The notes: a model not told the origin generated them from the sequence alone. Shown: positions 5,081-61,159, numbered from the stretch's first letter. The stretch: 64,000 bases of DNA from Chiloscyllium plagiosum (GCF_004010195.1 NC_057724.1:65730096-65794095); one strand, 5' to 3'. Numbers and translations are program-made.

Positions 5081-5681
5081 TTAAATGTTTCTCACCCTCT
5101 GGAATCTAGGAGCTAAAAATAACAATTTTAAACATTCATTATTTGTGTAAAGATTTGTAGCCAGTTGTCATAGTTGTGGGTATGTTCGCTGAGCTGGGAA
5201 GTTGATTTGGTAAAAACAATGACTGCAGATGCTGGAAACCAGATTCTGGATTAGTGGTGCTGGAAGAGCACAGCAGTTCAGGCAGCATCCAAAGAGCAGC
5301 GAAATCGACATTTTGTATTTATTATATCCGTTGCTCCCGATGCGGCCTCCTCTACATTGGGGAAACTGGGCGCCTCCTAGCAGAGCGCTTTAGGGAACAT
5401 CTCCGGGACACCCGCACCAATCAACCACACCGCCCAGTGGCCCAACATTTCAACTCCCCCTCCCACTCTGCAGAGGACATGGAGGTCCTGGGCCTCCTTC
5501 ACCGCCGCTCCCTCACCACCAGACGCCTGGAGGAAGAACGCCTCATCTTCCGCCTCGGAACACTTCAACCCCAGGGCAACAATCTGAACTTCAACAGCTA
5601 CCACATTTCCCCTTCCCCCACCTCATCCTAATTCCAAACTTCCAGCTCAGCACTGTCCCCATGACTTGTCCAGACTTGTCC

Positions 5682-6161
5682 NNNNNNNNNNNNNNNNNNN
5701 NNNNNNNNNNNNNNNNNNNNNNNNNNNNNNNNNNNNNNNNNNNNNNNNNNNNNNNNNNNNNNNNNNNNNNNNNNNNNNNNNNNNNNNNNNNNNNNNNNNN
5801 NNNNNNNNNNNNNNNNNNNNNNNNNNNNNNNNNNNNNNNNNNNNNNNNNNNNNNNNNNNNNNNNNNNNNNNNNNNNNNNNNNNNNNNNNNNNNNNNNNNN
5901 NNNNNNNNNNNNNNNNNNNNNNNNNNNNNNNNNNNNNNNNNNNNNNNNNNNNNNNNNNNNNNNNNNNNNNNNNNNNNNNNNNNNNNNNNNNNNNNNNNNN
6001 NNNNNNNNNNNNNNNNNNNNNNNNNNNNNNNNNNNNNNNNNNNNNNNNNNNNNNNNNNNNNNNNNNNNNNNNNNNNNNNNNNNNNNNNNNNNNNNNNNNN
6101 NNNNNNNNNNNNNNNNNNNNNNNNNNNNNNNNNNNNNNNNNNNNNNNNNNNNNNNNNNNNN
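5682..6161. other. assembly gap
   Basis: Run of N. Confidence 1.
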
Positions 6162-6202
6162 NCCTCTAACTTATCTCTCCACACTTCAGGCTCACTGCCT
6201 TT

Positions 6203-6238
6203 ATTCCTGATGAAGGGCTTTTGCCCGAAACGTCGATT
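6203..6238 (+). ncRNA. minimal type I hammerhead ribozyme motif (PLE terminal repeat)
   Basis: attc-CTGATGA-a-GGGC tttt GCCC-GAAAC-GTC-gatt. Confidence 0.75.
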
Positions 6239-6312
6239 TCACTGCTCCTTGGATGCTGCCTGAACTGCTGTGCTCTTCCAGCACCACTAATCCAGAATGG
6301 GAAGTTGATTTG

Positions 6313-7370
6313 CAGACATTTCATCCCGTCAGTTCTTTGGAGCCTCCTGTGAAGCGTTACTGTGCTGTTTTCTGGCATTTATTTGGTTCCATTCCTGCTG
6401 CTTCTGGTTGCCAGTTCCTGTAGTTTGTAGTAGTAGCCGGTATATTGTGTTTAGGTCTAGGTGTTTGTTGACAGAGTCCGTGGATGGGTCATAGAGTCAT
6501 GCTATGCTTCTTGACATTCTCTGGCTGTCCTCTGCTTAGCTTGTCCTGAGATTGTTGTGTTGTCTCAATTGAATTTGTGGTCCTTGTCATCTGTATGTTT
6601 GACTACTAGGGACAGCTGGTCGTGGTGCTTAGTGGCTAGTTGGTGTTCGTGGATGTGGATTGCTAGGTGTCTGCCTGTTTGTCCTCCTGTAAACTACGTT
6701 AGCCTTATACATGATGGGTATAGGGTCTTTTGTCCTGGTGAGTGGTTGTCTGTTTGTGGGCTGTCATGAATCCCAATGGTTGGAGAAAGCTGGCTGTTAG
6801 TTCAGAGACTTTTTTAATACAAAGTAGCGTGGTTAGTGTGTTGGGTCGTGACATGTCATTGTCACGTTGTTTGTCTGGTAGGTATCTGCAGATGAAGTTG
6901 CAGGGTATCCGTTCTTGGTGAAGACTCTGTACAGGTGTTCTTCTTCTTCTCTTCGCAGGTCAGGGATGCTGCAGCATGTTGTAGCCCTTTTGAACAAGTC
7001 CTAATGCATCTTTTCTTGTGTGTGTTCGGGTGGTTGCCATTGAAGTTCAGGATCTGGTCTGTGTGTGTGGCTTCTCTGTACACTTTTGTGGTGTATTCAC
7101 CATTCTGTGTTCTTTCTACCATCTTACTTAGGAACAGGAATCGATTGTTGGTTTCCTCCACCCTTGTAAATCTGATTCCTGTGAGCATGGTGTTGATAAT
7201 TCAGTGTGTTCTCTATTTCTTTTCTCTTAACAATTACAAAAGTGTCGTCCATGTGTCTGATCGAGTGCTTGGGTTGGATTTGTGAGAGGGCTGTTTTGCA
7301 TCACTGCTTCTGCCATGAGCCCTGATATGGGTGAGCCTATTGGTGTCCCATTGATCTTTAAATATTCATT
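6313..7370 (-). mobile_element. Penelope-like element, second family (RT/GIY-YIG remnant); continues at 5145-5209
   Basis: Remnant TKVYREATHTDQILNFNGNHPNTHKKRCIR, typical of the PLE RT thumb; similar to 45788-46720 and 52180-53000. Confidence 0.8.
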
Positions 7371-9599: not shown

Positions 9600-10140
9600 C
9601 AGCCCATGGGTTTCCTCCAGGTGCTCCGGTTTCCTCACACAATCTAAAGACGTGCAGGTTAGGTGAACTGTCCACGCTAAATTGCCCATAGTGTTCAAGG
9701 ATGTGTAGGTTAGGGGCATTAGTCAGGGATAAACATAGAGTAATAGGATTATAGGGTAATAGGAGGAGAAAGTGAGGTCTGCAGATGCTGGAGATCAGAG
9801 CTGAAAATGTGTTGCTGGAAAAGCGCAGCAGGTCAGGCAGCATCCAGTTCCCTGTTCCCTGGATGCTGCCTGACCTGCTGCACTTTTCCAGCAAACATTT
9901 TCAGCTCTTATAGGGTAATAGGGTGGGTTACTATTCAGAGGGTCGGTGTGGACTTGTTGGGCCAAATAGCCCGTTTCCACACTTCAGGTCCTGTTCCCTG
10001 GATGCTGTCTGACCTGCTGCGCTTTTCCAGCAAACATTTTCTGCTCTTATAGGGTAATAGGGTGGGTTACTATTCAGAGGGTCGGTGTGGACTTGTTGGG
10101 CCAAATAGCCCGTTTCCACACTTCAGGGATTCTATGATTC
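9600..10140 (+). mobile_element. HE1-type SINE 3' part with nested PLE palindrome and a 139-bp tandem duplication
   Basis: gtgctccggtttcctc..gtgcaggttagg HE1 body; unit cctgttccctggatg..acacttcagg at 9851-9988 and 9990-10127. Confidence 0.75.
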
Positions 10141-10477
10141 ATAACAAAGAAATGCTTTGGGGCTTTTTTTTTGCAATTGCAGGGAATGCCAAATTCCAAT
10201 GCTTGTGTGTTATTCGTGAGCAAAGACTATAAACAAATGCTTCAGTAACTATATAAAGCTTTTTTTAAGGAATAAAGCATATTCACGGCTGATCCGACAT
10301 TCCTCAAGTACAATTTCCTGCATTTTCCCGTAACTATGCAAGATCAAGAATCTATCTCAGCCTTAAATGTACCCAAGGTCTCGGACCCCACTGGCACCGA
10401 GCTCCAAAGGCTCACAGGCCCTCAGTGAAAAAGGGCGCTAAACACAGCCGACAATAAGTAACAGCTCCACTGCTTAC

Positions 10478-10579
10478 CTTGCCGCCGTTCGTCCACCTGT
10501 GAATGTAGATGGTGGCGAGCCCTGGCACCGTCAGGCAGCCGGCCATGATGGCAAGCCCGGGCAGGATCTCGTACCACAT
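10478..10579 (-). CDS. NDUFA1: NDUFA1 exon 1 ([34 protein letters not shown]), NADH:ubiquinone oxidoreductase MWFE subunit
   Basis: MW[FY]EILPG N-terminus, 102-nt coding exon, AAG|gtaagc donor; the three exons join to 70 aa. Confidence 0.97.
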
Positions 10580-11009: not shown

Positions 11010-11985
11010 GTTTGTGAAGCAACAGGCCTCAGCCCAGGATCCAGTTCAGGAGGCAATGTCTCCACTAGATAAAACAAAGAACTGCAGTCCTCATCTGATG
11101 AAGGATCACTGGACTCCAAAGATTAACTGTTTCTTTCTCCACAGATGCTGCCAGACCTGCTGGGTTTCTCCAGAAATTTCTGGTTTTGTCTCCACATAAA
11201 TGGCTTCCTTCAAAATCCATGTTCAACATAAATTAAAATTGAAGCTGTCAGTGTGATTGCAAAGCTCCAAGGCAGTTAGGCTATTTTTGGTTTCTCACTA
11301 TCCGTTTTCCCGTGTACATATTGTTAATGATGTTTATTCCACTGTTTCCTGTGAGGAGCACACTTACTTGTGACAGCCTGTATTATGACAATTGGAGAGA
11401 ATCGAATATTGTATGGATTTGAATTTGTGGCTGAGTCATCCTGGATCTTGTGTATTCTCTCAATTACTGGTCAGCTCTCCAACTGCTTCAGATTTGTCTT
11501 TAAACAGAAAATGCTGTGAGTACTCTGGAAGTTAAGCTGCATCTATGGAGAAAAACAGATTTAATGTTTTAGGTCAATGACAACACAATGCTTTCTGTGT
11601 TGATTTTCTATCAGATATGTCTTCCTCAGTTTTACTAATTGTATTTGCTGCTTAAACTGAGTTTTTTTTAAAAAAATGTTTGTAATATTTAAATGATCCT
11701 GATCCTAAGGTAGCCTCTTTATTCATGAACATTTTGTCATTAGATGTTTCTTCAATAATACTTTATGGCTTGTATTCTCACTACAACAGGGTCATCACAT
11801 TTGTTGTAAAACTGCAGTAATTGCAGTTTGCTCTTGTTTTTGTAATTTGAATGTTACTAGATTAAGTAGCTCACTGTATACCTAATCTGAGTGATCTGTT
11901 TTGAAATTTAAGAATACTCTGAGATTAACATTGTATATTTTTTGAAGAGGTAGCTGATATGTATTAAATTACCTTTATCCAATAG

Positions 11986-19505: not shown

Positions 19506-19704
19506 GAGCTGAAAATGTGTTGCTGGAGAAGCGCAGCAGGTCAGGCAGCATCCAGGGAACAGGAGAATCGACGTTTCGGGCATAAGCCCTTCTTCCTGAA
19601 ACGTCGATTCTCCTGTTCCCTGGATGCTGCCTGACCTGCTGCGCTTCTCCAGCAACACATTTTCAGCTCTGATCTCCAGCATCTGCAGACCTCACTTTCT
19701 CCCC
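19506..19704. mobile_element. palindromic PLE terminal-repeat insert with 14-bp TSD
   Basis: Arms gagctgaaaatgtgttgctggagaagcgcagc.. / ..gctgcgcttctccagcaacacattttcagctc; TSD taacaaatgcatta at 19492-19505 and 19705-19718. Confidence 0.85.
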
Positions 19705-21330: not shown

Positions 21331-21414
21331 ATTTATAGTACTTTTTGTAGGCAAGACACATCTAGGCATTTTTTTTCCACATTGTCAAGCAAAAAATCAA
21401 ACTTCAAAGTTTGG

Positions 21415-21643
21415 GCGAAGATTTGTAGCTCGGGTGCTCGTTGTTGTGGTTCTGTTCGCTGAGCTGGAAGTTTTTGTTGCAAACGTTTCGTCCCCTGGCT
21501 AGGCGACATCATCACCACTATAAACACCGGAGGAAACATCAAAGAAGTGCTTCGCAGGAGGCTCCCAAGCACTGATGATGTCGCCTAGCCAAGGGACGAA
21601 ACGTTTGCAACAAAAACTTCCAGCTCGGCGAACAGAACCACAA
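21415..21643. mobile_element. palindromic insert of the second PLE family
   Basis: Arms about 21442-21514 and 21573-21643 are reverse complements; shares gatttgtagctc..gagctgg with the PLE ends at 5150 and 45790. Confidence 0.8.
21569..21608 (+). ncRNA. minimal hammerhead ribozyme motif, family 2
   Basis: GCA-CTGATGA-t-GTC..GAC-GAAAC-GTT-TGC: stem I GCA/TGC, stem II GTC(g)CC/GGGAC. Confidence 0.75.
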
Positions 21644-22048
21644 TAAACTAAACTGACTGAAGACTAATATATATGATCCTGGGAGCCTCGGGATGAGGCT
21701 AAAATGGATCTACCACTCTGCACTTCAGAAGATAGTTGCACGTTTGTCAGTTTTGTCTTAGGCGCTGGTGTGCTGAGCCCCCCCCATTGCCATTCATGAC
21801 TGGATGTGGCAATGCCACAGAGCTTGGGTCTGATCTGTTGGTTGTAGGAATACCTTACCCTATCTAATGCATGTTGCTGCTGCTATTTGGCACATGAGTA
21901 ATCCTATGTAGCTTCACCATGTAACTGACGTTTTAGATGTGCCTTGTACTGCATCTGGTATGCCCTCCTGAACTTTTCATTTAATCAAGTTTGATCTCCT
22001 GGTTTTATGGTAAACCGGGCACAATATGCCAGTAATGAGGTTGTATGT

Positions 22049-22240: not shown

Positions 22241-22563
22241 CGGATTTATGGTGGAATACAATTCTGCTGCTGATGGCTCATATTGACCCATTGCCCAGTT
22301 TTGATCTGTTCAAAATCTTATCACGTTCAGAATGATGCAAGATAATCTGAATGTGAAGACAACTTTGTCTCCACAAAGTGTGTGCAGTTTTACTCCTGCT
22401 GCTGTCATGGACATATAAGTGTGCCACAGGCATATTGATGAGGTCAAGTAGGTCTTTGCTTTTTTAGTTGGTTCCGTCACTATGTGCAACTGAGCTCTCT
22501 GCTGGACATTGGAGTTCACTGCAGCCCATTCTGTGGCCTTGCCACATTCTTTACATTATTCTC

Positions 22564-22781
22564 GATTAGTGGTGCTGGAAGAACACAGCAGTTCAGGCAG
22601 CATCCGAGGAGCAGTAAAATTGACTTTTCGGGCAAAAGCCCTTCATCTGGAATACTGATGAAGGGCTTTTGCCCGAAACGTCGATTTTACTGCTCCTCGG
22701 ATGCTGCCTGAACTGCTGTGTTCTTCCAGCACCACTAATCCAGAATCTGATTTCCAGCATCTGCAGTCATTGTTTTTACCT
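22564..22781. mobile_element. palindromic PLE terminal-repeat insert with intact plus-strand hammerhead core (22655-22682)
   Basis: CTGATGA a GGGC tttt GCCC GAAAC GTC; inverted arms; imperfect flanking repeat acattcttta[c/g]atta at 22544-22558 and 22782-22796. Confidence 0.8.
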
Positions 22782-25124: not shown

Positions 25125-25274
25125 TGAAAAGCATGGCACTGGAAAAGCACAGCTGTCAGACAACATCCGAGAAACAGGAAAGTCAATGTTTCAGGCATAA
25201 GCCCTTCATCCTGACCTGCTGTGCTTTTCCAGCACCACACTTTTTGACTCTGATCTGCAGTCATCACTTTCTCC
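25125..25274. mobile_element. degenerate palindromic PLE insert with 14-bp TSD
   Basis: TSD tatggagtcagagt at 25111-25124 and 25275-25288. Confidence 0.7.
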
Positions 25275-26741: not shown

Positions 26742-26975
26742 TGATTTGGAGATGCCGGTGTTGGACTGGGGTGTACAAAGTTTAAAAATCACTCAACACC
26801 AGGTTATAGTCCAACAGGTTTAATTGGAAGCACACTAGCTTTCGGAGCGACGCTCCTTCATCAGGTGATTGTCACCTGATGTCACAATCACCTGATGAAG
26901 GAGCGTCGCTCCAAAAGCTAGTGTTCTTCCAATTAAACCTGTTGGACTATAACCTGGTGTTGTGTGATTTCTAAC
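26742..26975. mobile_element. palindromic insert of a third PLE family, 13-bp TSD
   Basis: Arms aaatcactcaacaccaggttatagtccaacagg.. / ..cctgttggactataacctggtgttgtgtgattt; TSD tttgattcttcta at 26729-26741 and 26976-26988. Confidence 0.85.
26833..26867 (-). ncRNA. minimal hammerhead ribozyme motif, family 3
   Basis: Minus: CAC-CTGATGA-a-GGAGC gtc GCTCC-GAAAG-CTA-GTG; the plus-strand twin near 26890 has GAAA mutated to AAAA. Confidence 0.75.
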
Positions 26976-30099: not shown

Positions 30100-31532
30100 G
30101 AAAATGTGTTGCTGGAACAGCGCAGCAGGTCAGGCAGCATCCAGGGAACAGGAGAATCGACGTTTCGGGCATAAGCCCTTCTTCAGGAATGAGGAAAATG
30201 TGTCCAGCAGGCTAAGATAAAAGGTAGGGAGGAGGGACTTGGGGGAGGGTCGTTCGAAATGCAATAGGTGGAAAGAGGTCAAGGTGAGGGTGATAGGTCA
30301 GACTGGGGTGGGGGCGGAGAGGTCAGGAAGACTGTGCTGAGTTCGAGGGATTAGACTGAGACAAGGTGGGGGGAGGGGAAATGAGGAAACTGGTGAAATC
30401 CGAGTTCATCCCTTGTGGTTGGGAGGGTTCCTAGGCGGAAGATGAGGCGCTCTTCCTCCAACCGTCGTGTTGTTGTGGTCTGGCGATGGAGGAGTCCATG
30501 GACCTGCATATCCTTGGTGGAGTGGGAGGGGGAGTTGAAGTGTTGAGCCACAGGGTGGTTGGGTTGGTTGGTCCGGGTGTCCCAGAGGTGTTCTCTGAAA
30601 CGTTCCGCAAGTAACCGGCCTGTCTCCCCAATACAGAGGAGGCCACATCGGGTGCAGCGAATGCAATAGATGATGTGTGTGGAGGTGCAGGTGAATTTGT
30701 GGCGGATATGGAAGTTTCCTTTGGGGCCTTGGAGGGAAGTGAGGGGGGGGGTGTGGGCGCAAGTCTTGCACCTCCTGCGGTTGCAGGGGAAGGTGCCGGG
30801 AGTGGAGGTTGGGTTGGTGGGGGGTGTGGATCTGACGAGGGAGTCATGGAGGGAGTGGTCTTTACGGAACGCTGATAAGGGAGGGGAGGGAAATATATCC
30901 TTGGTGGTAGGGTCCATTTGGAGGTGGCGGAAATGACGGCGGATGATACGCTGTACATGGAGATTAGTGGGGTGGTAGGTGAGGACCAGTGGGGTTCTGT
31001 CCTGGTGGTGGTTGGAGGGGCGGGGCTCAAGGGTGGAGGAGCGGCAAGTGGAAGAGATGCGGTGGAGGGCGTCGACCACGTCGGGGGGGAAATTGCGGTC
31101 CTTGAAGAAGGAGGCCATCTGGGTTGTACGTTTTTGGAACTGGTCCTCCTGGGAGCAGATGCGGCGGAGATGAAGGAATTCGGAGAATGGGATGGCGTTT
31201 TTACAGGGGGCATGGTGGGAGGAGGTGTAGTCCAGGTAGCTGTGGGAGTCGGTCGGTTTGTAGTAGATGTCCGTGTTGATTCGGTCGCCTGAGATAGACA
31301 TAGAACGGTCGAGGAAGGGGAGGGAGGAATCTGAGACTGTCCAGGTGAATTTGAGGTCGGGGTGGAAGGTGTTGGTGAAGTGGATGAACTGTTCAACCTC
31401 CTTGTGGGAGCACGAGGCGACGCCGATACAGTCCTGGACTACACCTCCTCCCAACCTGCCCCCTGTAAAAACACCATCCCATTCTCCCAATTCCTTCGAC
31501 TCCGCCCGGGGAAGCGAAAATCATGGAGGAGG
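30100..31532 (-). mobile_element. 5'-truncated Penelope-like element (RT thumb + GIY-YIG, open frame), 13-bp TSD
   Basis: ORF 30351-31490 with LPFLD..TDIYYKPTDSHSYLDYTSSH, C.RRRCKTC, IIYCIRCTRCGLLCIGETGR; TSD agccaattgtgtt at 30087-30099 and 31533-31545; sense hammerhead in the 3' end at 30155-30190. Confidence 0.92.
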
Positions 31533-31969
31533 AGCCAATTGTGTTCCCATCCATAATGGATGTTTTTTGTCTGACTGAACCTGATAGCAGTTTGGCTTTC
31601 AAAGCTGATGGCAGTGAACGCAACATCAATTTCTTGTATAACACACCACTGCAGAACATAGAAAGCTGGTTCTTTAATAAACAAAAGGACCACCTGCTGG
31701 TACCATCGCACCAAGTAAAGAATGCCATTAAATTCTGTTTCTGCATCTCCTTTGCTGGACTCAAAGTCTGGTTGCAAGCACAGAAACTCCTGCTCTCATG
31801 GACAAACTAAAGGTAAGTGCAAGATCTCTGCTGCAACTGTATATTTGTGAATCAAGTAAGTTTACCTATTAAAAGGTAATCTGGGGGAGATCCAAGATGG
31901 CGGTAGTCTGAGTGGTCTGCTGTGCTGTGCTGGGCTCTGTGCCGTACCCCTGGGCAAGGTGGACCTTTA

Positions 31970-32202
31970 GTTGAAACTTTATTGCTGGAACAGCACAGCA
32001 GGTCAGGCAGCATCCAGGGAACAGGAGATTCGACGTTTCGGGCACAGGCCCTTCTTCAGGAATGAGCCTTCTTCATTCCTGAAGAAGGGCCTGTGCCCGA
32101 AACGTCGAATCTCCTGTTCCCTGGATGCTGCCTGACCTGCTGTGCTGTTCCAGCAATAAAGTTTCAACTTTGACCTCCAGCATCTGCAGACCTCACTTTC
32201 TC
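31970..32202. mobile_element. perfect palindromic PLE insert with two back-to-back hammerheads (32028-32063 minus, 32075-32110 plus), 15-bp TSD
   Basis: About 96-bp exact inverted arms; ATTC-CTGAAGA-a-GGGC ctgt GCCC-GAAAC-GTC-GAAT; TSD caaggtggaccttta at 31955-31969 and 32203-32217. Confidence 0.9.
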
Positions 32203-34474
32203 CAAGGTGGACCTTTACTCCTGCCCATCTCCCCCCCCCCCCCCCCCCCTTATCAACCACCACCAGGAGAAAAAAGTATTCATTTAAACGTGCTATTTGG
32301 AGCTGCTGAAATCGTCTGGGACAGCTTTAAGGCCAGGATGAAGTCCAGTAAAGGAAGGGGGCCTAAAGGAGCACAGCAGACTGGGCACTCCCCTACTGCA
32401 TCGAGGGTGCCTGCAGCCAGTGTTCAGACTCCTGGGGCGGCCCCTTGGGATCCAGCAGGACAGCAGCACTTACTGCCGGAGTTTGCCAAACTCTTGAGAG
32501 TGGATTCAAGCAGCAGTTGAGCTACTCTCTGCCGTGCTAAAGAAGCATGAACAGGAAATCCAACTGCTGGAATGAAGACTGGAGGCAGTGGAGGAGAGGA
32601 CCGCGGCATCAGAGACTGTAGCGGAGATCTCGGGAGGAAGAATCCAAACACTGGAAGATCAGGTTCGGGTCCTTCAGGATCAAGTCGACTACCTGAAAAA
32701 TTAAAAAAAGGAAAAACTTACAGATTGGGGGTCTCCCGAAACACGAGGAAGGCAAGGACCTTGTCAGCGTTCTGCAGGGGTAGCTTCCGAAGTTCCTGGC
32801 ATTGGAGTCAGTCGGGCCTGGTAAGCATGGAGCGGGTCCACTGGATTGCAATGCGCAGGTCGGACTGGACCTGTGTTCCAGTGCGGTCCTTGTACAACTC
32901 CTGTATTATAACTTTGACTCCACGGAAAAGGCGAGGGACTCTGAAATCTTTGAAGTGAAGGACCAGAGTCGGGGTGGGAGGAGAGGGGTTATATTACCGC
33001 CCCCACCCCCCTTCCTACTTCCCTATTCCCTTTGGTTGTGGTTATTGGTTTTGTATGTACAGTTGTAAAATTATTTTATATATCAGTCGGTTGGGTATTA
33101 TCTAGGGTTCCTTTTATATATATATATATTGCTGTCTTCTTGAATTTGTATTGGGGTGGCTATATCTGTGGCTAAGATAAGTGGGTTGGGGGATGGGTAT
33201 CCATAGTTAACTTTCAGAATGTAAATGACAGGTTTGTTTGTGAATTGCCTGGGGCTCGGGCACGATGTCAGCTAAAGGGAGTTAAGATGATAGTAAAGAT
33301 TGGGAGAGGTGTCCCCTATGGGCAAGGGGGAAGATCTCGAGCGAATTGGGGGTTATTTGGGTGTCTCTTTCAGTTAAATTGTGTTTTTTTTTAGTTGTTT
33401 TTATAGGAATAGTTTTTAGATCTCAGAGTTAATATCTTTGTAACACGTCACACCTCGATAAGCTCCCTTCTCCTGGGAAACCACAGGTTGCCCTGGATGA
33501 CAGTGGCTAGTGATTTGTTCAGGTGGTGCACCTGGAATATAAAAGGGAGCCATTCTCCTATTAAAAGAAAGAAGGTCTTATCAAGCCTCCGGAAAGAAAG
33601 GGTGGACATTGCCCTCCTCCAAGAGACTCATCTAACTGATAAGGAACATCTGAAACTGCAGCAGGGGGCTTACGACAGGGTATTTTTCTCATCCTTCAGC
33701 TCTAAGAGTAGAGGTGTGGCTATACTGATAAGAAGGAACTTACCTTTCCAGGTAACTGAGCAGATTAAGGAGGAATATAGATGGTTTATATTCTTAAAGC
33801 CCTAATACATGAAGAAGAATATGGTGTTTTGAATGTGTACTGTCCCCCAGCGCACCCTCTTTAATTCAGCCATTGCATCAATTAGAAAATTAAGATTATA
33901 GGAGGGGATTTTAATGGCCTAATAGATCCAGAGATTGACAGGGTGCCAATAGGGCTGGCAGATATGCCCGTGCAGTCTAAGCAGTTGGTGGATATGTGAA
34001 ATGAGTTGGGACTAGTGGATGTGTGGAGGTACCTCCACCCTAATGGAAGAGACTTCATGTTCTATTCCAACCCACAGAAGTGCCATATGCAAATTGACAT
34101 GCGTTTATGCCAGCTGACGGTCTGGACAGAACATTGGCGTGCAAAATTGGGGATACAGCTGTTTCGGATCAAGCACCAGCATATTTAAGTGTTAAAATCA
34201 AGGGTAGTGGAATGGATGTATGTCACTGGTGCATGGATCCATTTTTGTTAGGGGATAGCAAATTTGTTGAATATATTATGAGAGTTCAGGGCCTTTTGGG
34301 ATACTAGTTCAGGTATGGCTAGTAATCTGGCAATGCTTTGGGAGGCCACTATGGCATATTTACGAAATTGGTCTGTGTGAAGCATGTTCCTCAGGGTCCT
34401 TCCCTTTCATTAAAATGAGGGAGATATTAGCCTCCCTAAGAGAAGTTGGCAGACAATCCTGTGTGTAAGAATAG

Positions 34475-34719
34475 CGCTGAAAATGTGTTGCTGGAGAAGC
34501 GCAGCAGGTCAGGCAGCATCCAGGGAACAGGAGAATCGACGTTTCGGGCATACGCCCTTCTTCAGGAAGCCCTTCACCAAAAACTTTCATGTACTTACCC
34601 CCACACTCCGGATTCCTCAACTGATTTCTGAAGAAGGGCTTATGCCCGAAACGTCGATTCTCCTGTTCCCTGGATGCTGTCTGACCTGCGCTTCTCCAGC
34701 ATCTGCAGACCTCACTTTC
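34475..34719. mobile_element. palindromic PLE insert with unique spacer, 17-18 bp TSD
   Basis: TSD tcctgtgtgtaagaatag at 34457-34474 and 34720-34737; hammerhead cores on both arms. Confidence 0.85.
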
Positions 34720-37700
34720 TCCTGTGTGTAAGAATAGTTGTACATCCCCAGAAGCGACTCTGCCAACATGTTTACAAATTCCTTATAGAATGCAGTTGGG
34801 AATCCATCTGATCATTTCAGATTCGATGACTAGAAAGAAGCAGAGGGAGGAGCAGCAACGGATGCTGGAGTCCCGGCTGAAGGTAGATGAGAAAACATTA
34901 TAATAGGCCGTGATTGGTTTAAGCTTCAGTGGGTCACAGCTCTCCGGGCTGCTCTCGACTCAATGCACACACAAGGGGCTTTAAAAAAAAAAGGTCTCCT
35001 TTGCCAAACAAAGACTGGTTGAATTCGGAGATAAGCCTGGTAGATATCTGGCTTGTTTGACTAGGAGAAAAAAAGCTCTCTAATCTGTTATGTTAGGGAG
35101 AAGGCTGGTACGATTACCCGCGAATTGAAGATGATCAGTGTTAGGTTTAGGGAATACTTTGCAGACCTATATTGGTTAGAGGGGGGCGAACACGGTACAA
35201 TGGGAATGCAGTCCTTTTTTGAAAATCTGGACCTCCCCAATATAAGTACGGAGCAGGCTTCCTTTTTGAATGCGCCTTTAACGGTACAGGAAGCAAAAAG
35301 ATATCTCCAGGGTGACAAAGCACCGGGGCCAGATGGATTCCCAACTGCATTCTATAAGGAATTCGTAAACATGTTAGTGGAGCCACTTCCGGGGATGTAC
35401 AAATATTCTTACACACAGGATTGTCTGCTGACTTCTCTCAGGGAGGCTAATATCTCCCTCATTTTAAAGAAAAGGAAGGACCCTGAGGAATATGCTTCAT
35501 ACAAACCAATTTCGCTGCTGAATGTAGATTTTAAAATTTTATCCAAGATGCTGACTGAGGTTGTAGAAGGTCCTGCCCCATATTATAAAAGAAAACCAGA
35601 CAGGTTTTGTTAAGGGTCGTAGCTCCTCCAACAATATTAGGAGAGTACTGAACACAGTACAGGTATGCCGGCAAAGATTGATTCCGGGTTTGGTGGTCTC
35701 CCTTGACGCAGAAAAGATGTTTGATCGGATAGAATGGCTGTATTTATTTGAGGTTCTAGAACGTTTTGGTTTGGGGGGATCCTTTGCCAGATGGGTAGCA
35801 GTACTGTATAATGATCCTCAGGCGGCAATCATTTCAAATGGTATTAAGTCAAATAACTTTAATATTGGAAGAGGTAGTCGACAGGGGTGTCGTTTGTCAC
35901 TGCTGTTATTTACCTTGGCGATTGAACCGTTAGCCAAAGCTATCAGGAGGGATCCTAAAACAGTTGCGACAAAGGTGGGAATGGGAGAGCATAAGATTAC
36001 CCTATATGTTGACGACGTCCTTTCATAATTGGCCAATCCGGATAAGTCTGTTCCTCGATTGATCCAAACAATTAATTCATATGGTGCTTTCTCGGCTACA
36101 GAATTAATTTTACAAAATCGGAAGCCATGCTGGTAGGGGGATTAGTGGAGGTGCTTAATCTGAAGGATGGAATGCAATTCCCGTTTAGATGGTCACCAAA
36201 AGGTTGTTTTATGTTTGGGAATTTTTATTACCGTTTCCTTCCACCAGCTGTATAATATTGGTCTAAATATTGGTCTAATACTTTGTCATTTACCCCATTG
36301 GTGGGAGCCCAAGGATTTAAACCTGGGACAATGGGCTCAGGCTTTAAGGCATAGGAGAATAAGGGAATCTTCTGTATGGGAGACTTACTCAAGAGGCAGG
36401 TCCTGATGTCATTTAGTCAGTTAAGTCAGAAGTATAAATTGTCTAATAGGGACCTTTTCTGATATTTCCAGATAAGGGACTATGATCCAGGAGCGTGGTC
36501 TTCCTCTGTATAATGTTAGAAATTAGACATGGAGAAAAGAATACTCCAATGTATGGGTGCTCTTTCACTCAGTATTTTATATCATTTACATAAGGTCGTG
36601 CACTGGGGGTCATGGAAGGACTCTGTAGGCCATGGAATCGAGAGTTAGGAGAGGATATTTCACCGGAAGTATGAGAAGACATCTGGGGGAATGTAAGGAA
36701 AGTCTCAGTATGTAACAGCGCAGGCCATGCAATTGAAGATCTTACTCGGGGCTCATACGGTGCAGATAGGCTAGCTAAGTTCAAGAGAGGAGTATCATCA
36801 GTGTGTCCCAGATGTAAAATTAGTATAGGCACTCTTACACACTGCTACTGGTCCTGTTATAAGATCCAAAGATACTGGAATTCTATAGTAAGGGAGCTAA
36901 ACGTCGTCCTGGGGATTGAAATTATTGAGGATCTGGTATTTCTTTTGGGGTTGCCCTCTCTGGGAGAACACGGGAAGAGATTGTGTGTAATATTCTTATC
37001 CATTGTGCAAGGAAAAACATTCTAGAGAATTGGATGTCAGAAAAACCACCAGGTCTTATGGGGTGGTGCAGGCTGGTGATGCAGCATCTTCCCCAAGACT
37101 ACCTCACAAATATGGTGCACCACAAAACTGAGCAGTTTTACAAGACATGGTGGCCCTTTTTAACTTATATTGATGCTGACTTATCAGCAATATTAATTAG
37201 GGCCATGGTATAGCTGTGGGAATCAGTATGGGGGTGCCTGTGGGTCCCTGGGAGGAGGAGACTGGAGGTAAAAGAATATAAGTACTGTAGATGGTGCTCC
37301 TGGGGATGGGAGCCTCAGTGGAGGTGTGACGAGTGAGATAGAATAAAGTAGTGAGATATTATTTAAGTTATTTGAAATTAGTTTAAGTTAGTATTTATTT
37401 AATATGTTTGTAGTTTAGTTTAAATTAAGTAGATATGTTTGTTCTGATAGAATAGTCGGTCGTTTCTTTAACAATGGTACTGTGTTATGGCCTTTTTGTA
37501 CTGCCTTTTCTGTTTTGATGGTATTTTTTGTGTATAAATGTTTGTAAAAGATTTTTAAAAGGTTTTCAGTAAAAATACTTATTTTTTAAAAAAAAGCTAA
37601 TCTATCTGCCGGTCAAGGCACTGTTCAAACTGGGAGAAGAGCAGTGCTAGTTCTGCCTGATGGAAGTTGAACAGTAGCTTTAATTAGCTCAACAAAAGTG

Positions 37701-42091: not shown

Positions 42092-44075
42092 CCAGGTTAT
42101 GGTCCAATAGGTTTATTTGGAAGCATTAGCTTTCGAAGCACTGCTCTTTCATCAGGTGGTTGTGGAGTATAAGATCATGAGACATAGAATTTATTGCAAA
42201 GGTTTGCAGTGTGATGCAACTGAAATGATATATTGAAAAAGACCTGGATTGTTTGTTCAGTCTCTCATTTTTTTAGAATGATAATGTTGGTTTCATTCTT
42301 TCATATGTAAATCCCAGAACTATTTTTAAAGTTACATTCTGGAGAACTTTATCTGAGATGACATGGCACCTATTGTTAATGTATTGAAGGTGTGAGATTA
42401 AAGTCTGTCTGTCTGTGCCCCAGTGTTCAGACTGATTCTATTTCTAATAAAGAGATTTACAGAATCTTACTTGGATTCATGCACCTTTTGAGCAAAATAA
42501 AATGTAATTCTGCAAGTACAAAGTTACTGCACAAATTTGTATCTGTGTGCATGTGTATGTGTGTGAGTGTAAAGGGTTATAAGTCTGTGATAGGGAGTGT
42601 GTATATGTAAGCGTATGCGAGAGAGCTTGTGTATGAGAGTTCTGTGTGAGTGTATTGGTCTGTAGGAGTGTGTGTGTGTGTGTGTGTGTGTGTATAATGC
42701 AGTGGGGTCACCTCTAGTGTGACATTAACCCAAGGTCTCAGATGAACGGGATACAATGCTCAACTTATCGACTGCTAGTTCCGATGTGCCACCGCTAGAA
42801 ACTGTAATGAGCTGCAAACAACAGGTATCCTTCGTTGTCCAGTACTTCCCAGGAGCCAAAAAACTACGTCATGTTCTTTGCAACCTGCAACACATTATCA
42901 GTGAGGATGAGTACCTAACTAAGACCTTCCCACATCTCCACTTCTCACCTTTTAAACAGCCATCAAACCTCATATGATCATTGTCTGCAGCAAACTGCCT
43001 GGCTTTCCGGACACCATACAACCCTGTCACAGCAGCCACTGCAAAGCGTGTCACTGTTGACACGGATACCACCATTACATGTGGAAACACCACCCACCAT
43101 ATACGTGGCAGGTAATCATGTGACACGGCCAACATTGTCTATCTCTTGCATTGCAGGCAAGGATGCCCTGAGGCATGATACATTGGTGAAGCCGAGCAGA
43201 GGCTACACCAACAGATAAGTTGACACTGCGCAACAATCACCAGCCAGGAGTGTTCCCTCCCAGTCAGGGAACACTTCAGCAGTCTGGGACATTCAGCCTC
43301 GGATCTTCGGGTGACCATCCTCCAAGGTGAACTTCAGGACAAGCAACACCACAGAATGGCCGAGTAGAGGCTGATAGCTAACTTTGGTATCCATGAGGAT
43401 GGCCTCAACTGGGACCTGAGGTTCATGTCACACTACAAGTGACCCACTGCACTATATACAGACAGACAGACAGACAGACATAGATGCACAGAAACCCACA
43501 CAAACAAACACACATGCATATATATTCTCTTTCTCATATGCTGACACTACACCCCTCCACACACAAACGTACCCTCTAATAGACTTTTATTCCTTTACAC
43601 TTTCACACATATACATGTACACACACACACACACCCACCCTGTGCACACACACACATAGGTTTGCAGGGTGAATTTGTACTTGCAGAATTATGTTATATT
43701 TTGCTCAAAAACTGCATGAGTCCATGTAAGATTCTGTAAATCCATTTTTTAGAAATCCGTCTGAACGTTGGGGCACAGACAGAATTTAACCTCACACCTT
43801 CAATGCATTATCTGAGGCGACGTGGGACTTATTGTTAAAGTTCACTTGAGAATGTAACTTTAAAAAATTAGTTCTGGGATTTACATACGGAAGAACTGAA
43901 ACACACATGGTCATTCTAAAAGATAACAGACTTAACAAACAATCCAGGTATTTTTCAATATATCATTTCAGTTGCATCACACTGTAAACTTTTGCTATGA
44001 ATTCTATGTCTTACGATCTTATACTGCACAACCACCTGATGAAGGAGCAGTGCTCCGAAAGGTAGTAGTTCCACC
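42092..44075 (+). mobile_element. third-family Penelope-like element: GIY-YIG remnant (about 42760-43440) between about 650-bp inverted arms
   Basis: Degenerate ..YLLHCRQGCPEA*YIGE.. core; 42117-42745 is the diverged reverse complement of about 43405-44075, including (GT)n/(CA)n tracts and a hammerhead-like motif at each outer end. Confidence 0.82.
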
Positions 44076-45787: not shown

Positions 45788-46720
45788 GGATTTGTAGCTC
45801 GGGTACCGGTTGTTGTAGTTGTAAGTATGTTCGCAGAGCTGGGAAGTTAATCTGCAGAATGGTGAATGTACCACAAAAGTGTACAGGAAAGCCACACACA
45901 CCGACCAGGTCCTGAACTACAACAGCAACTCCGCCACCCAAACACACACCAGAGAAGCTGCATTAGGACCCTGTTCAAAAGAGCTACAACACACTGCAGC
46001 ACTCCAGACCTACGAAGGGAAGAAAAAGAACACCCCTATAGAATATTTGCCTGCAACTTCATCTGCAGATGCCTAATAGACAAACAACGCAATGAGGGCA
46101 TGCCATAACCTAACTCACGATCCACGCTACCTTACATAAAAATGTCCCTGAACTGACAGGCAGACTTCTCCGACCACTGGGATTCATGACAGCCCATAAA
46201 CCGACAGCCACGCTCAGACAACAACTCACCAAAGCAAAAGACCCTATACCAATCATCTGCAAGGCAAACCTAATTTATAGGATTCCTAGCAAAGATTGCA
46301 GCAAACACTATATAGGGGAAATAGGCAGACAACTAGCAATCCGCATCCACTAACACCAACTGGCCACTAAACGCCACAAGCAGCTGTCCCTCGTAGCCAC
46401 ACACACACATGACAAGGACCACAAATTCGACTGGGACAACACAATGATCATTGGACTCACCAAACAGAGGACAGCCAGAGAATTTCTAGAAGCATAGCAT
46501 TCATCCATGGACTCCATCAACAAACACATAGACCTAAACCCAATATACCCGCCACTACAATGAACGAGTGGAAGCAGCAAAAACAGAACTAAATAAATTC
46601 CAGAAGACACAGTACAGCAATGCTTCACAAGAGGCTCCAAAGCACTGAAGATGTTACCCAGACAGGGGAGGAAACGTCTGCAAATCAAATTCCCAGCTCG
46701 ACAAACATACCCACAAGCAC
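45788..46720 (+). mobile_element. second-family Penelope-like 3' fragment with short inverted ends
   Basis: YRKATHTDQVLNYNS, ..CSKHYIGEIGRQLAIRIH; left end gatttgtagctcggg..gctgggaagtt mirrors right end aattcccagctcg..acaagc; degenerate hammerhead near 46642-46682. Confidence 0.8.
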
Positions 46721-47879
46721 AATAGATGACCTTCCAAAACAAGGTAATTTCTTATTTCTCCTTAGTTCGCTTTAAAGAGATGTTGGTGGACCTCTCAGTT
46801 TGACTGCTACAGTCGATGTGGTGAAGGTATTCCCACAGTTGTGTTGGGAAGTATGTGCTTCTAATTTTGACCCAGCAATAATGATGGAACAATGCTGTCA
46901 ATCCAAATGAGATGGTCAGTATGGCATGGCATACACTCCTGCCCTCTTCATTGATTCCCCTGGCTTGATGTCAATGGCAGAGTGGGAGATATGCAGGGTC
47001 ATTGCTACTAATGGCCCACCAATCCTCATGGATGCCAGTTTTGAGTTGCTAGAACTGTTTGAAGTCTATCCCATTTAGCATAGTGATAATGTCACACAAT
47101 GTAATGGAGGATTTTAGCAATATGAAAACTGACTTTGTCTGCACAAGGACTGTGGGGTGGCCACTCTTAATGATACTGTCATAGATAGATGCAAGTGCAA
47201 GCTTGGTGATGATGAGGTCAAGTATGTTTTTTCCTCCTTGGTTTGCTCACTACCTGCCTCAGACCGGGTCTAGCAACAAAGGCCTTTAGAACTCAACCAG
47301 TGTTCTGCACCCTTGCTACCCTCCGTGCTTCCTCCAACTGTTGTTCAAAAAGGAGGTACATCGGTTCATTAGCTGAGGGAAGATGGAACATGGTATTCAG
47401 CCTATGGTTTCTTTGCCATTGAGAGGGAATGTCATTGCGACACACATACCAGAGTGGTAGGAGCCAAATTCCATTTTTAAAAAGGTTGTGATTGATACCA
47501 CTGATGCAAGTAGATGGGCATCCAATAACAAACCCTAATTCAGAGCGGTTCTTCGTTAGCATCAAGCTGATATTACAGCTGCACTGTAAACAAGTTATTG
47601 AAAACTCTGTTTAGATTTACTGCTTTTCTTTTACAACAACTATAAATTTGTGAACAATTTTGTACTTAATAGTGACCAGCAGCAACATATATTGTGCAGA
47701 ATGGCTGAATATTAATTTAGTAATGGTCAGTGTTATCTATCTTTTCATATTACAATTTTCTCCCTTGCTATCCTAAAGCTCTGAATTCTTGTGGTTCCAA
47801 TTTTCATTATGTTTTTACTCTTCTTTTGAACACTCATCCCAAAAGAGCAGGTGGAAGTAGAGTTCATTGAATTTGTCAT

Positions 47880-49890
47880 TGTGGGGAGGGAGAGTAACCA
47901 CTATTGCATCACTTCGAGATCAAGGAGGTCATCTTTGTGTTGAACCCCAGGAGATGGGAGAGATGCTACATGAATATTTTGTGTTAGTTTTTACTGTTGT
48001 CACGAAGCTAGTTCCTTTTTTTTCTAAAAGTTGTTCCTTAGCTCAAGGAGACTCTGTCCTTGATTTCTTTCAGTGCGATAATAAACCATGCTGGGCTCCG
48101 ATCAGACTGGTTTGGAACAGAGATGAAAAGGATTTTGAGAGGCCTTTTGTTTATATATAAACAGATGAGACTTCAGGCCAAAGTGGTCATGTTTTAGAAG
48201 TGACCTGTATAATGAAAGGGGAGTGGTCAGCTCTCTAGCTGAGCTGGGCAGTTTAGTTCAGTCTTGAACTGGTGAGGAGTTCAACAGGAAGCTGTGTGGA
48301 AATTCTCTGTCTCTCTTTCTGTGTTCCATTTATACTGTTTTTTTTAAAGGGAGTTTGCTTACTGGGACTGTTGTGTATATTCAGAACAGCATAATTAAGT
48401 CTAGTTTGGATAGACTGAGCTCTGTAGGGGCTCTTTATTCTGTTCATTGTGTTTTGTTGTGTAATTTTGTGAATAAATTTTTTTCTGTTTTAAAATCTAG
48501 TAGTCAACCTAGCTAACTTAATCCAGGTATGATTCGGAGATGCCGGTGTTGGACTGGGGTGTACAAAGTTAAAAATCACACAACACCAGGTTATAGTACA
48601 ACAGGTTTAATTGGAAGCACACTCCAATTAAACCTGTTGGACTATAACCTGGTGTTGTGTGATTTTTAACTTAATCCAGGTAATTTTCAATCTACACTTA
48701 CCTAAACAAATTGCAAAGTTACGGTCTGGGTTGCTTGCTTAAGAATGTTTTGAGTGGTTTGGCCTAGTCACTGTGGAGAAAGAAATGGAGTCCAGAGAAT
48801 ACAGAGGAATGAATTTTGATGTTTCAAAAACAGTTCACATTACTGAAATGGAAGTTCTGGAGGTCTTAGAATATAAAGACGGATAAGTCTCCGGGACCTG
48901 ATCTAATGTATCAGACAATGTTTTGGGAAGTAAGGGTGGAAATTGTGAGACTCCTTGCAGAAATGTTTGCATCATCTATAACTATGGGTGAGGTGCTTGA
49001 CATAATAATTTGGATGAAAGTATAGAAGGTATGGTTAGTAAGTTTGCAGACAACACCAAAATTGATGGCACAGTAAATGGTAAAAAAAAGTTTTCTCAGA
49101 TTTCAAAGGGACCTTGATCAAATTGGTCAATGGGCTGAAAAATGGCAGATGGAGTTCAACCTGGATAAATGTGAGGTATTGCATTTTTGTAAAACAAATG
49201 AGGGTAGAACTTGTATAATTAACGGTAGGGCCTTGGGTAGTGTTATGGAACAAGAAACATTGAGGTTTAGGTCCATTTTATGTGACACAAACTTCAACAG
49301 GTTGATTAATAAGGCGTTTAGCATGTTTGCTTTCATTGCTCAGTCCTTTGAGTAAAGGAGTTAGGAAGTCATTTTGAAATCGTACAGGACATTGAGGCCT
49401 TTTCTGGAATATAGTGTCCAGTTCTGGTCATCCAGTCATAGGAAGGATATTATTTAAACTGGAGAGAGTTCAGAAGAGATTTACCAGGATGTTGCTGCAT
49501 ATGGAAGCTAGAATTATAAAGAAAGGCTGAATGGGCAGGGACTGGAGCGTAGGAGGTTGACAGGTGACCTCATAGAAGTTTATAAAATAATGAGAGGGAT
49601 AGAGTTGATAGTCATTGTCTTTTGCCCAAGATGGGATGTTTCAAGACTAAGGGGTACATTTTACGGTAAGATTTTAAAAAAAGACAAGAGTTACACAGAA
49701 GGTGGATCATGTGTGGAATGAACTACCTGAGGAAGTGGTGGATGTGGGTACAATTACAGCGTTTAAAATATATTTGGTTAAATATTTGCATATGTAAGGT
49801 TTGGAGGGATAGGCCAGTGGGCTAGTTTAGTTTTGGATTAAGTTTGGCATGGATTGGTTGAACTGAAGGGTCTATTTGCATGACTCTATG
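47880..49890 (+). mobile_element. older CR1 LINE interrupted by a solo LTR
   Basis: LRDQGGHLCVEPQEMGEML before the insert; FQRDLDQIGQWAEKWQMEFNLDKCEVLH after it; tail tgactctatg. Confidence 0.82.
47998..48770. mobile_element. probable solo LTR (TG..CA, 4-bp TSD ctgt) with nested family-3 PLE palindrome (about 48530-48667)
   Basis: ctgt|TGTCAC...TAGTCA|ctgt; internal AATAAA at 48472; removing it restores the CR1; the nested insert is flanked by aacttaatccaggta at 48515-48529 and 48668-48682. Confidence 0.7.
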
Positions 49891-59342: not shown

Positions 59343-60386
59343 CTACCTGGAGTCAGCCTTTTCTGGTTTCTCTCGCTGCCACGAAGATAGTTTCAGGAGT
59401 CGGTGCACTGAGGGAATCAGGGAGAATTCGCGATTCTTGGTCGGACTGTCGTGTTGTCTGTGCGGGGCCGGGGCCGGGGCCGGGGCTTGCTGGGGAGGTT
59501 GCGGCTCCTCCTGCTCCTGAGCGCCGGCCAGCTGCCGGAGTTGCGCGGGGGTCTCGCCGGCCAGGTACTGCCAGGCTTTGCGGCCGCGGTAGTCTCGGAC
59601 GTCGACGTCCGCGTCGTAGGCGCCCACCAGCAGCTTGATGACCATGGGGTGGCCCTGCATCGCGGCGAGGTGCAGGGCGGTGTAGCCTCCGCCCGCCGCC
59701 CGGGCGTTCAGGTCCAGGCTCCAGCCGCGGCTCTGCGCCAGGCGCGCCAGCTTCATCAAGCCGTGGTGGTCGCCCCGCTTGGCCAGCCAGTGGGCGGCGG
59801 TCAGGCCGCTCACAAACTCCCTGCGGTTCAGCAAGGCGGGCTCCTGCAGCAGCAGCGCCTCCATCACCTCCCAGTCCCCGGCCGCCAGCGCCAGCGCCCA
59901 CTCATGTTCCCGGGACTCCAGCGCCTCTCCTGGGGAGCCCGAGGAGGATAGGGACGCCCCCTCCTCCTGCTCGCTCCTCCCGCCGCTGTGGGCGCTCCAC
60001 ATGCCGCCGAAGCCGTCCCAGCCATTGCGGAGCATCAGTTCCCTCAGGCCCTTCCTCCTGGCTCCCGCTTCCGACCCGGTTGCGCCGCCCTTGCGCCCGA
60101 AGCTCTCCCGTTTCCTGAGCGAGCCCCGGCCGCCCGCCGCCTCCGCTCGCCTCCTGAGCGGGAAGGTCTCCGCCGGTTTTACGCCGGCCGAGCCCCCGGC
60201 ACTTTCCGCCGTCTTCAAGAAGCGGCCCAGCAGGCGGGACAGGCGGTTCACATCCTCCAGGACCACGCTGTAGCTCAGCCCCTCGCGGCTCCCGCTGCAA
60301 GCCGAGGTGGGGCTCGGCTTAAACTGTGTCGGGCTGGCCTCCCCCAGGAACCGGCTCTGGCTCAACTCGCCGAGCTTCTCAAACAT
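59343..60386 (-). CDS. SOWAHD: sosondowah ankyrin repeat domain protein, SOWAHD-like, single exon, about 347 aa
   Basis: First ATG of the open frame is at 60386 (MFEKLG..); LESREHEWAL, TAAHWLAKRG, GYTALHLAAMQGHPMVIKLLVGAYDADVDVRDYRGRKAWQYL are SOWAH ankyrin motifs; CpG-rich and intronless. The D paralogue call rests on synteny and orientation relative to UPF3B/NDUFA1; the start is uncertain. Confidence 0.88.
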   Translation of the reverse strand: MFEKLGELSQSRFLGEASPTQFKPSPTSACSGSREGLSYSVVLEDVNRLSRLLGRFLKTAESAGGSAGVKPAETFPLRRRAEAAGGRGSLRKRESFGRKGGATGSEAGARRKGLRELMLRNGWDGFGGMWSAHSGGRSEQEEGASLSSSGSPGEALESREHEWALALAAGDWEVMEALLLQEPALLNRREFVSGLTAAHWLAKRGDHHGLMKLARLAQSRGWSLDLNARAAGGGYTALHLAAMQGHPMVIKLLVGAYDADVDVRDYRGRKAWQYLAGETPAQLRQLAGAQEQEEPQPPQQAPAPAPAPHRQHDSPTKNREFSLIPSVHRLLKLSSWQREKPEKADSR

Positions 60387-61159
60387 GCCGAGCTGCTCTC
60401 TCACTGCCCGCACTGGTCCAAAGCTCACACTCTGAGATGAAGTAATATAGAAAGCTGCTGTCCTCAGTGCCCTATACGTACTCCACGCCCCCGTGGAACT
60501 TCCTTGGAGGCATACATAAAATGTATACAACCAATAGGGCACCAAATCGTCCGATGCTCCGAATGTCTCCAAGCCAACCTGACAACACCTACCTCTCTTT
60601 AACTCAGGGAATTTTTCTCCTATCTACACACCACCTGCTGCTGACTGGACTTCCGATCTTTCCCGATTCCCAATAAGTAACGTTAAAGTCATCTGCTGCG
60701 TCGACTCTTAAAGTGAAACTCAGTCACGAGTTTTAAAAAAAAAATCTGCCTAAAACAGAATTGAAATTTCACATTTTAAAAATAAACACACGTGCAGTCC
60801 TCATAACGGGAAGTAACTTCGAAATAAAACTTCACTGCACCAAATAGAAGTACGGTCAGACTTTTGAAACAGATTTGAATTATAATTTTAATATAAATAT
60901 GTTTAGAAGGTTCGCTAAGAGATATGGAACAAATAAAGGTCTGATTACACTATTTATTAATCGAACAGGGAGAAGAATCCGGTTCGAAATTAAGTAATTA
61001 TAGAATCAAACGTACCTCTTCAGATACGCACATCCGTTGTTCTACAGACTTGCTGCAAGTTTATTTGTTATTGATCATATGCAGATGTTCAGACTTCACA
61101 AGATAGAAAGAACGTTGCAACGAGTAAGGCAGAGAATTAAAAAGGAAATAAAACGAACG

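Follow-up and report, generated by a model that had tools for sequence, protein, structure and literature searches.

What gives rise to a short, ORF-less palindromic insert with a hammerhead ribozyme in each arm? The question is raised by the insert at 31955–32217 in a stretch of 64,000 nucleotides of Chiloscyllium plagiosum DNA (NC_057724.1:65730096–65794095; the window), which is rich in repeats. A sequence-only reading had placed it among seven palindromic loci with back-to-back ribozymes and had offered two origins: truncation and foldback during integration of Penelope-like elements (PLEs), or a self-propagating, non-autonomous element that could cleave from either strand. We conclude that the palindromes are very likely dead by-products of PLE insertions. 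They are a new instance of a PLE insertion type that has already been described, and their regular ends provide a mechanistic clue.

The focal palindrome and its source element

The focal insert (locus 31969) occupies 233 bp between two TSD copies (31955–31969 and 32203–32217) that are identical at 15 of 15 positions. Its arms (31970–32065 and 32073–32168) are exact reverse complements of 96 nt each, with a 7-nt centre between them and a 34-nt tail on one side, all as originally described. The predicted hairpin fold has an energy of −217.8 kcal/mol (z = −29 compared with 200 shuffles). The insert is located in the 5′ portion of an apparent decayed L1-type LINE with an APE domain at 33413.

31955–31969 (+): left TSD, 15 bp; 15/15 match, null score of at least 10 in 1/1,000
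31970–32066 (−): tailless pLTR arm, sense on minus; outer end +62 from C17, inner end −34, extra G at −35
32028–32063 (−): minimal type I hammerhead of the tailless arm; C3 at 32059, predicted cleavage after 32032
32066–32072 (no strand): junction at the centre; its 7-nt filler is a partial repeat of the neighbouring arm
32073–32168 (+): tailed pLTR arm, sense on plus; inner end at −33
32075–32110 (+): minimal type I hammerhead of the tailed arm; C3 at 32079, predicted cleavage after 32106
32169–32202 (+): PLE tail, 34 nt, on this arm only; outer end at +96
32203–32217 (+): right TSD, pairs with the left TSD at 15/15
30100–31532 (−): 5′-truncated PLE, putatively Neptune/Nematis type (copy 30097); RT C-terminus, CX4CxxC linker, GIY-YIG, 3′ UTR, tailless pLTR; TSD 13 bp

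The focal arm is the 3′ terminal repeat of both PLE fragments in the window and is 92.7% identical to that of copy 30097. These 'ORFs' are 5′-truncated fragments, and the RT core is missing from both. The segment 30354–31520 matches RT+GIY-YIG proteins at 37–44% identity (11 of 13 matches with E ≤ 2e-60), and the two ORFs cover residues ~430–900 and ~700–900 of such proteins, which are 800–1000 aa long. Pfam GIY-YIG was matched with E = 9e-6 at 5206–5628, and only with E = 0.067 in copy 30097. Both ORF-bearing copies carry a minimal type I hammerhead in the 3′ pLTR, with C3 at 30186 (−) and 6207 (+). A PLE origin and minimal type I hammerheads, both proposed at first reading, are supported.

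Translation of 30351–31520 contains a CX4CxxC linker together with the motif IIYC..C..C...CIG. This linker marks Neptune and Nematis (PMC8557442), and the ORF-bearing source family here is, judging by the linker motif, an endonuclease-positive (EN+) PLE of Neptune/Nematis type. Other features of EN+ PLEs are also present: an optional one-ended tail of 30–40 nt (for the definition of the PLE tail, see PMC8557442 and PMC11167929), an inverted 5′-truncated copy and a TSD of variable length. Near the truncated 5′ end of copy 30097, an internal inverted duplicate (31433–31506) of 31163–31236 (92% identical) takes the place of an inverted pLTR.

Inverted loci and their ribozymes

The six other palindromic loci were all confirmed, their boundaries shifting by no more than about 5 nt from the first report, and TSDs of 9–18 bp flank all seven. 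We identified four further inverted loci, at 5210–6297, 21411–21646, 26742–26975 and 48530–48666 (two of family B, one of family C), and TSDs were found at 10 of the resulting 11. The TSD test covered 17 hand-bounded loci, and 3 of 1,000 random position pairs score at least 9; the search found none at 21441, 56608 or 62898. Families B and C are pLTR families unrelated to each other and to the family of the focal arm.

5210–6297: long-arm version (locus 5206); tailed arm short and inverted, tailless arm ~1 kb and containing GIY-YIG; TSD 15 bp; assembly gap 5682–6162
9764–9907: inverted pair (locus 9765), left arm tailed; lacks a hammerhead core; 15-bp TSD
11066–11186: family D, tailless arm after an inverted candidate fragment made of tail alone (~22 nt); 9-bp TSD
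19506–19704: inverted pair with a truncated core in each arm; 14-bp TSD
21411–21646: inverted pair, family C (locus 21441); tailless arm 58 nt longer; TSD not found
22559–22781: inverted pair, subfamily A2 (locus 22564); one intact core; TSD 15 bp, 1 mismatch
25125–25274: old inverted pair in which neither core is intact; 14-bp TSD
26742–26975: inverted pair, family B (locus 26782); TSD 13 bp; absent from the sequence-only reading
34475–34719: inverted pair with two intact cores and a 56-nt filler; 18-bp TSD; empty-site twin 35370–35445
48530–48666: inverted pair, family B (locus 48566); no core; sole locus with a longer tailed arm; TSD 16 bp
62153–62380: inverted pair, loopless centre; decayed cores; TSD 9 bp

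Two loci have empty-site twins in the window, each twin with a single copy of the TSD. The segments 34363–34810 and 35330–35514 are inverted duplicates of part of an L1-type ORF2, one hosting the 34475 insert and the other being the empty site. The PLE at 5210–6297 is nested in a pLTR of family E (5150–5209 and 6298–6560), for which a copy near 46670–46740 shows the empty site. We also observed a local duplicate of the right half of the 9764 locus with its flank (9989–10100), and a probable old, long head-to-head pair of family B at 42092–44073 with remnants of GIY-YIG-like ORFs (42765–43427; about 27% identity to PLE proteins). Host genes are represented by an intronless ankyrin-repeat ORF (Pfam Ank) at 59343–60623 (−), which we take to be SOWAH-like, and presumably by an NDUFA1-like exon at about 10470–10570 (−).

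A self-propagating element, similar to a retrozyme or a MITE, would be transcribed, cleave itself and be reinserted by PLE proteins. The local density of the palindromes (11 inverted loci in 64 kb), the separate TSDs at ten of them and the very young focal copy, which is still 7% off its nearest relative, speak for such an element, as do the similar centres of loci 31969 and 62153 and the derivation of animal retrozymes from pLTRs (10.64898/2026.07.22.740005). Comparison of the centre junctions within the window speaks against it: all 11 differ, none is exactly shared, and they are drawn from at least three unrelated pLTR families. Even the nearest pair, 31969 and 62153, is a 5-nt insertion apart and has arms from different subfamilies. 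The nearest relative of an arm is either its partner or a long copy from the same subfamily (92.7% identity between 31969 and 30097; 96.7% between 22564R and 5206R), in an arm tree that is poorly resolved, with 2 of 15 branches well supported. Several centres contain templated or foreign filler. The 7-nt filler of the focal copy is probably a scar of end-joining or template slip; the 56-nt filler at 34569–34624 has no source match in the window beyond 12 nt, contains an 8-nt echo of the arm, and could represent captured RNA or DNA, or an upstream exon.

The ribozymes themselves bear on the same question. Both focal arms have an intact CUGANGA...GAAA...UC core with 4/4 pairs in stem I and in stem II, which confirms the full core first reported in each arm. 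A minimal-hammerhead descriptor found 15 matches in the window, compared with a mean of 0.03 (maximum 1) over 100 shuffles. The 15.2–16.2 pair covaries among these matches (CG in 11, GC in 3 and UG in 1), and helix I, which the descriptor does not demand, pairs in 12, 14, 9 and 8 of the 15 at positions 1–4, using several pair types. At position 3, a U–U mismatch is present in 6 of the 15 matches (family A hammerheads, 6203–62978); the focal copy has A–U on both arms. In PAc (a Poseidon element of Anolis carolinensis), the ORF begins within the hammerhead; no such start could be confirmed here, and no frame is conserved across subfamilies.

Back-to-back ribozymes, described earlier as a general feature, are a minority condition: two intact cores occur at only two of the seven loci (31969 and 34475). 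Loci 22564 and 62153 each have one mutated core, and the remaining core at 62153 pairs at 2/4 positions of stem II. At 9765, 19506 and 25125 both arms are truncated within or beyond the core, so these three loci never had a full one.

Each strand carries one sense core, and the arms are arranged head-to-head, so the complement is always transcribed before the sense core. Folding models put the cost of the hammerhead fold at 65.4 kcal/mol (plus strand) or 58.4 kcal/mol (minus strand) within the palindrome, compared with 7.1 kcal/mol in a single arm, and predict a stem II pairing probability of 0.0 on both palindrome strands; on these predicted probabilities we rejected cis cleavage inside the palindrome. 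Cleavage from either strand, as had been suggested, is not supported: it would require the core to escape a perfect complement that it always follows. For minimal hammerheads, a second sense copy is said in PMC4209133 to be required, with weak activity even so. Cofolding gave energies of −87 for sense with antisense and −19.5 for sense with sense, and the canonical dimeric hammerhead was not recovered from the sense–sense cofold; dimer activity thus lacks computational support. We infer that the hammerheads are passengers of the pLTR that would be sequestered in the hairpin on both strands.

Further points count against propagation. Because the arms are inverted, not tandem, a unit-length circle cannot be excised; retrozymes consist of head-to-tail units, each with a complete hammerhead, whereas all 11 pairs here are head-to-head with one sense core per strand, and the palindromes are therefore not retrozymes. 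The cleavage site is the start of only 1 of 26 arm 5′ ends, and one locus (5210–6297) has a 1-kb arm. Insertion in PAc requires RNA that extends past the RT start sites on their downstream side, and by analogy the inserts would lack such RNA. Taken with the distinct centres, the absence of a full core at three loci and the predicted sequestration of the core, this makes a self-propagating ribozyme element highly improbable.

Regular ends and the origin of the inverted arms

Every inverted locus combines one tailed and one tailless arm (11/11), an outcome with a probability of about 5e-4 (0.5^11) if the ends chose independently; this count leaves out the candidate at 11066 as well as 42092–44073, both ends of which are broken. 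Single-arm copies occur in tailed and tailless form. The outer ends of tailless arms fall at +60 to +64 from C17 in 8/8 palindrome arms measured, and at +59, +60 and +66 in three single-arm copies. Tailed outer ends fall at +96 to +99 in 6/6 palindrome arms, two arms with internal deletions having been left out, and at +96 in a single-arm copy. In PAc, the tail lies between two RT start sites, and the two fixed outer ends seen here correspond to them (PMC11167929).

The inner ends are also regular. Among 26 arm 5′ ends bounded by a junction or a TSD, 17 fall within −8 to +2 of C3, an 11-nt zone just upstream of the ribozyme, compared with 2.4 expected under a uniform null over ±60 (p = 3e-10 after correction for bin choice; per locus 11/15, p = 4e-7). 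The ends were read by hand against this crude null, leaving out long arms, the unbounded monomers 56608 and 62898 and the family B copy 44690. The pile-up could reflect the RNA 5′ end or an RT pause. That just 1 in 26 ends lies at the cleavage site led us to reject cleaved RNA as the template and agrees with the use of uncleaved RNA. At the inner ends of 31969, 62153 and 26782, a G replaces the C of long copies, which hints at a copied cap but is suggestive only. In family A, the pile-up coincides with an initiator-like heptamer; in family C, a TATA-like box lies about 55 nt before C3 in the region upstream of the hammerhead (21515–21572).

Arm lengths within a locus are often unequal. The tailless arm extends further 5′ at six loci (5206, 9765, 19506, 21441, 22564 and 25125), the tailed arm at one (48566), and four are ties; this 6:1 asymmetry is not significant alone, and a generous count of 7:1 gives p = 0.07. 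Since 5210–6297 has the layout of the short palindromes with an arm of ~1 kb, the latter appear as the short end of a continuum of lengths.

We think it probable that both ends of the target DNA prime reverse transcription at two fixed PLE start sites and that the heads of the two cDNAs are end-joined, giving products that are dead on arrival. Insertion would begin with a staggered cut by the GIY-YIG nuclease, to which the TSDs point. Both 3′ DNA ends would then prime RT on uncleaved element RNA, at the tailless (about +62) and the tailed (about +97) sites; priming on both strands and at two start sites has been reported for anole Poseidon (PAc) in vitro (PMC11167929). The cDNAs may stop early or continue to a favoured end point a little 5′ of the hammerhead, which could be where the RNA itself begins. 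The tailed cDNA starts further downstream and has to displace the other, and would usually have the shorter reach. Joining of the cDNA heads, as the centre scars suggest, would leave a head-to-head palindrome with one tail.

Priming from both ends would explain the fixed outer ends, the mixed pairing of tails and the longer tailless arms together, and is also supported by the continuum of arm lengths up to ~1 kb at 5210–6297. In the available text of PMC11167929, PAc cleaves and extends both strands and starts RT at the two sites bounding the tail, hammerhead cleavage is dispensable, and RNA downstream of the start sites is needed. The same source reports no bulk difference between strands in the choice of start site, which counts against priming from both ends, as do the similar centres of 31969 and 62153, the weak arm tree and the missing TSD at 21441. 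The order of events proposed here is drawn from 11 loci of this one window.

Head-to-head pLTR palindromes have been explained in print by self-priming of RT on an antisense template (PMC3846280), which likewise predicts one longer arm. We consider it unlikely that the palindromes are dead PLE by-products of self-priming or foldback, whether on an antisense template, as in Arkhipova et al., or by snap-back of the cDNA. Near-identity of arms within a locus (100% at 31969) would fit such an origin, as would the finding that 10 of 16 palindrome arms of family A/A2 match their own partner best, and the loopless centre of 62153 and templated fillers at 26782 and 31969 show that some local slip or snap-back synthesis took place. 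But foldback of a tailed-first cDNA is geometrically impossible at 6/11 loci, and a tailless-first cDNA cannot add a tail. All six junctions tested have a snap-back complementarity of 0–1 nt, and at 5206 no complementarity can be seen; absent microhomology is weak evidence against self-priming, since PLE RT does not depend on homology to prime. Tailed-first foldback was nonetheless ruled out on arm geometry together with the missing complementarity. The reversed asymmetry at 48566 also argues against self-priming. So does the family D insertion at 11057–11195, whose candidate inverted piece consists of tail only, has no complement in the other arm and, if real, cannot derive from foldback; 80 of 4,905 random 27-mers score equally (p about 0.016).

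The earlier idea of truncation plus foldback is therefore retained in part. Repeated de novo formation at integration is supported by the 11 different centres and by the grouping of arms with long copies from the same subfamily. Foldback in its plain form lacks support, since a tailed cDNA that copies itself cannot make a tailless arm reaching further 5′, as seen at 6 of the 7 asymmetric loci.

Formation after insertion, by deletion or recombination that removed the ORF from longer inverted PLE copies, is very unlikely. Long inverted copies exist (5210–6297 and probably 42092–44073), and microhomology-mediated deletions and solo pLTRs have been reported for PLEs (PMC3846280). However, the 100% identity of the focal arms and their perfect TSD leave little time for such events, inner ends are concentrated in the same 11 nt as those of single-arm, TSD-bounded copies, and the centres hold insertions, not microhomology.

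Priming from both ends can be extended to a more specific proposal, which we put forward tentatively. The palindromes may be footprints of PLE integration in which one RNP, probably a dimer, primes both ends of the break on one RNA at two fixed sites, with the cDNAs running off a defined, possibly capped RNA 5′ end 6–8 nt upstream of the hammerhead core. One RNP acting in this way would give each inverted product exactly one tail. If this is true, solo and palindromic pLTRs would be 'strong-stop-like' products of initiation at the 5′-proximal pLTR, or of a short, dedicated, non-autonomous pLTR RNA, and antisense self-priming would be replaced as the origin of PLE inverted repeats.

Relation to described insertions

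Structures of this kind are already described in PMC8557442, PMC3846280 and PMC4209133. Inverted 5′-truncated copies with a one-sided tail of 30–40 bp are called typical of PLEs (PMC8557442, PMC3846280, PMC8969392). The inverted-pLTR insertions of EN+ PLEs (Penelope/Poseidon, Neptune, Nematis and Naiad; legend to Fig. 2 of PMC8557442, and PMC3846280) share with the loci studied here an inverted copy head-to-head with a direct one, a tail at one end, a variable TSD and a palindromic junction. The available descriptions deal with copies that bear ORFs and ascribe the junction to self-priming; here, in contrast, both arms are usually cut down to the pLTR and there is no ORF.

Schistosoma has dual minimal hammerheads on opposite strands, 100–700 bp apart, that are 'probably related to truncated PLEs' (PMC4209133). 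Common to both systems are a minimal type I core, a bulged base before helix II, a palindromic 15.2–16.2 pair, the lack of loop 3, cores on opposite strands and the absence of an ORF. The cores here are only about 20 nt apart, and TSDs, tails and junctions do not feature in the available description of the Schistosoma pairs. PAc (PMC11167929) resembles the present case in its two RT start sites separated by the tail, in the cutting and extension of both strands and in a pLTR hammerhead with an uncleaved RNA template. It differs in that the source element here belongs to a different PLE clade, as the CX4CxxC linker suggests, and the available PAc text describes neither inverted products nor a coupling of start site to DNA end. 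Metazoan non-LTR retrozymes (PMC7229834; 10.64898/2026.07.22.740005) are likewise ORF-less, short and related to pLTRs, with a type I hammerhead and longer TSDs. Their units are head-to-tail with a hammerhead each and give circular RNA, whereas the palindromes are head-to-head with one sense core per strand.

PMC8557442 and PMC11167929 regard the origin of the tandem and inverted structures of PLEs, and of their one-sided tail, as an unsolved problem. Our literature search found no paper that describes pLTR palindromes without an ORF in sharks, an obligate pairing of tailed with tailless arms or a model of dual priming, a weak negative given thin coverage of subscription papers, including the primary structural ones on Penelope. 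Two patterns were not found in print: the mixed pairing of arms at every palindrome, and the concentration of 17 of 26 arm 5′ ends immediately before the ribozyme. We also considered human UCON13 as a hairpin-shaped Penelope relic and rejected it, as the available text of PMC5753468 lists UCON13 as Penelope without mention of a hairpin or palindrome.

The element itself is ordinary, consisting of truncated, inverted PLE ends, and its value is mechanistic. LINE-1 twin priming offers a parallel, in that cDNA is primed by both target ends, a 5′ inversion arises within the TSD and the centre is end-joined. In LINE-1, however, the second primer lands at a variable upstream site and the segments do not overlap, whereas here the two sites keep fixed positions about 35 nt from each other and both copies cover the same sequence. 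Because the copies are short, bounded by TSDs and closely spaced, with 11 in 64 kb, scoring tail pairing, asymmetry, 5′ ends and the extra G across the genome could separate dual from self-priming without bench work.

An Rfam scan of the window gave 19 matches at E ≤ 1, none of them to a hammerhead family. All 19 are to miRNA or lncRNA families with scores under the gathering thresholds, and the miRNA matches are hairpin artefacts. As palindromes of this kind score as miRNA precursors and resemble MITEs, they are likely to be mis-annotated.
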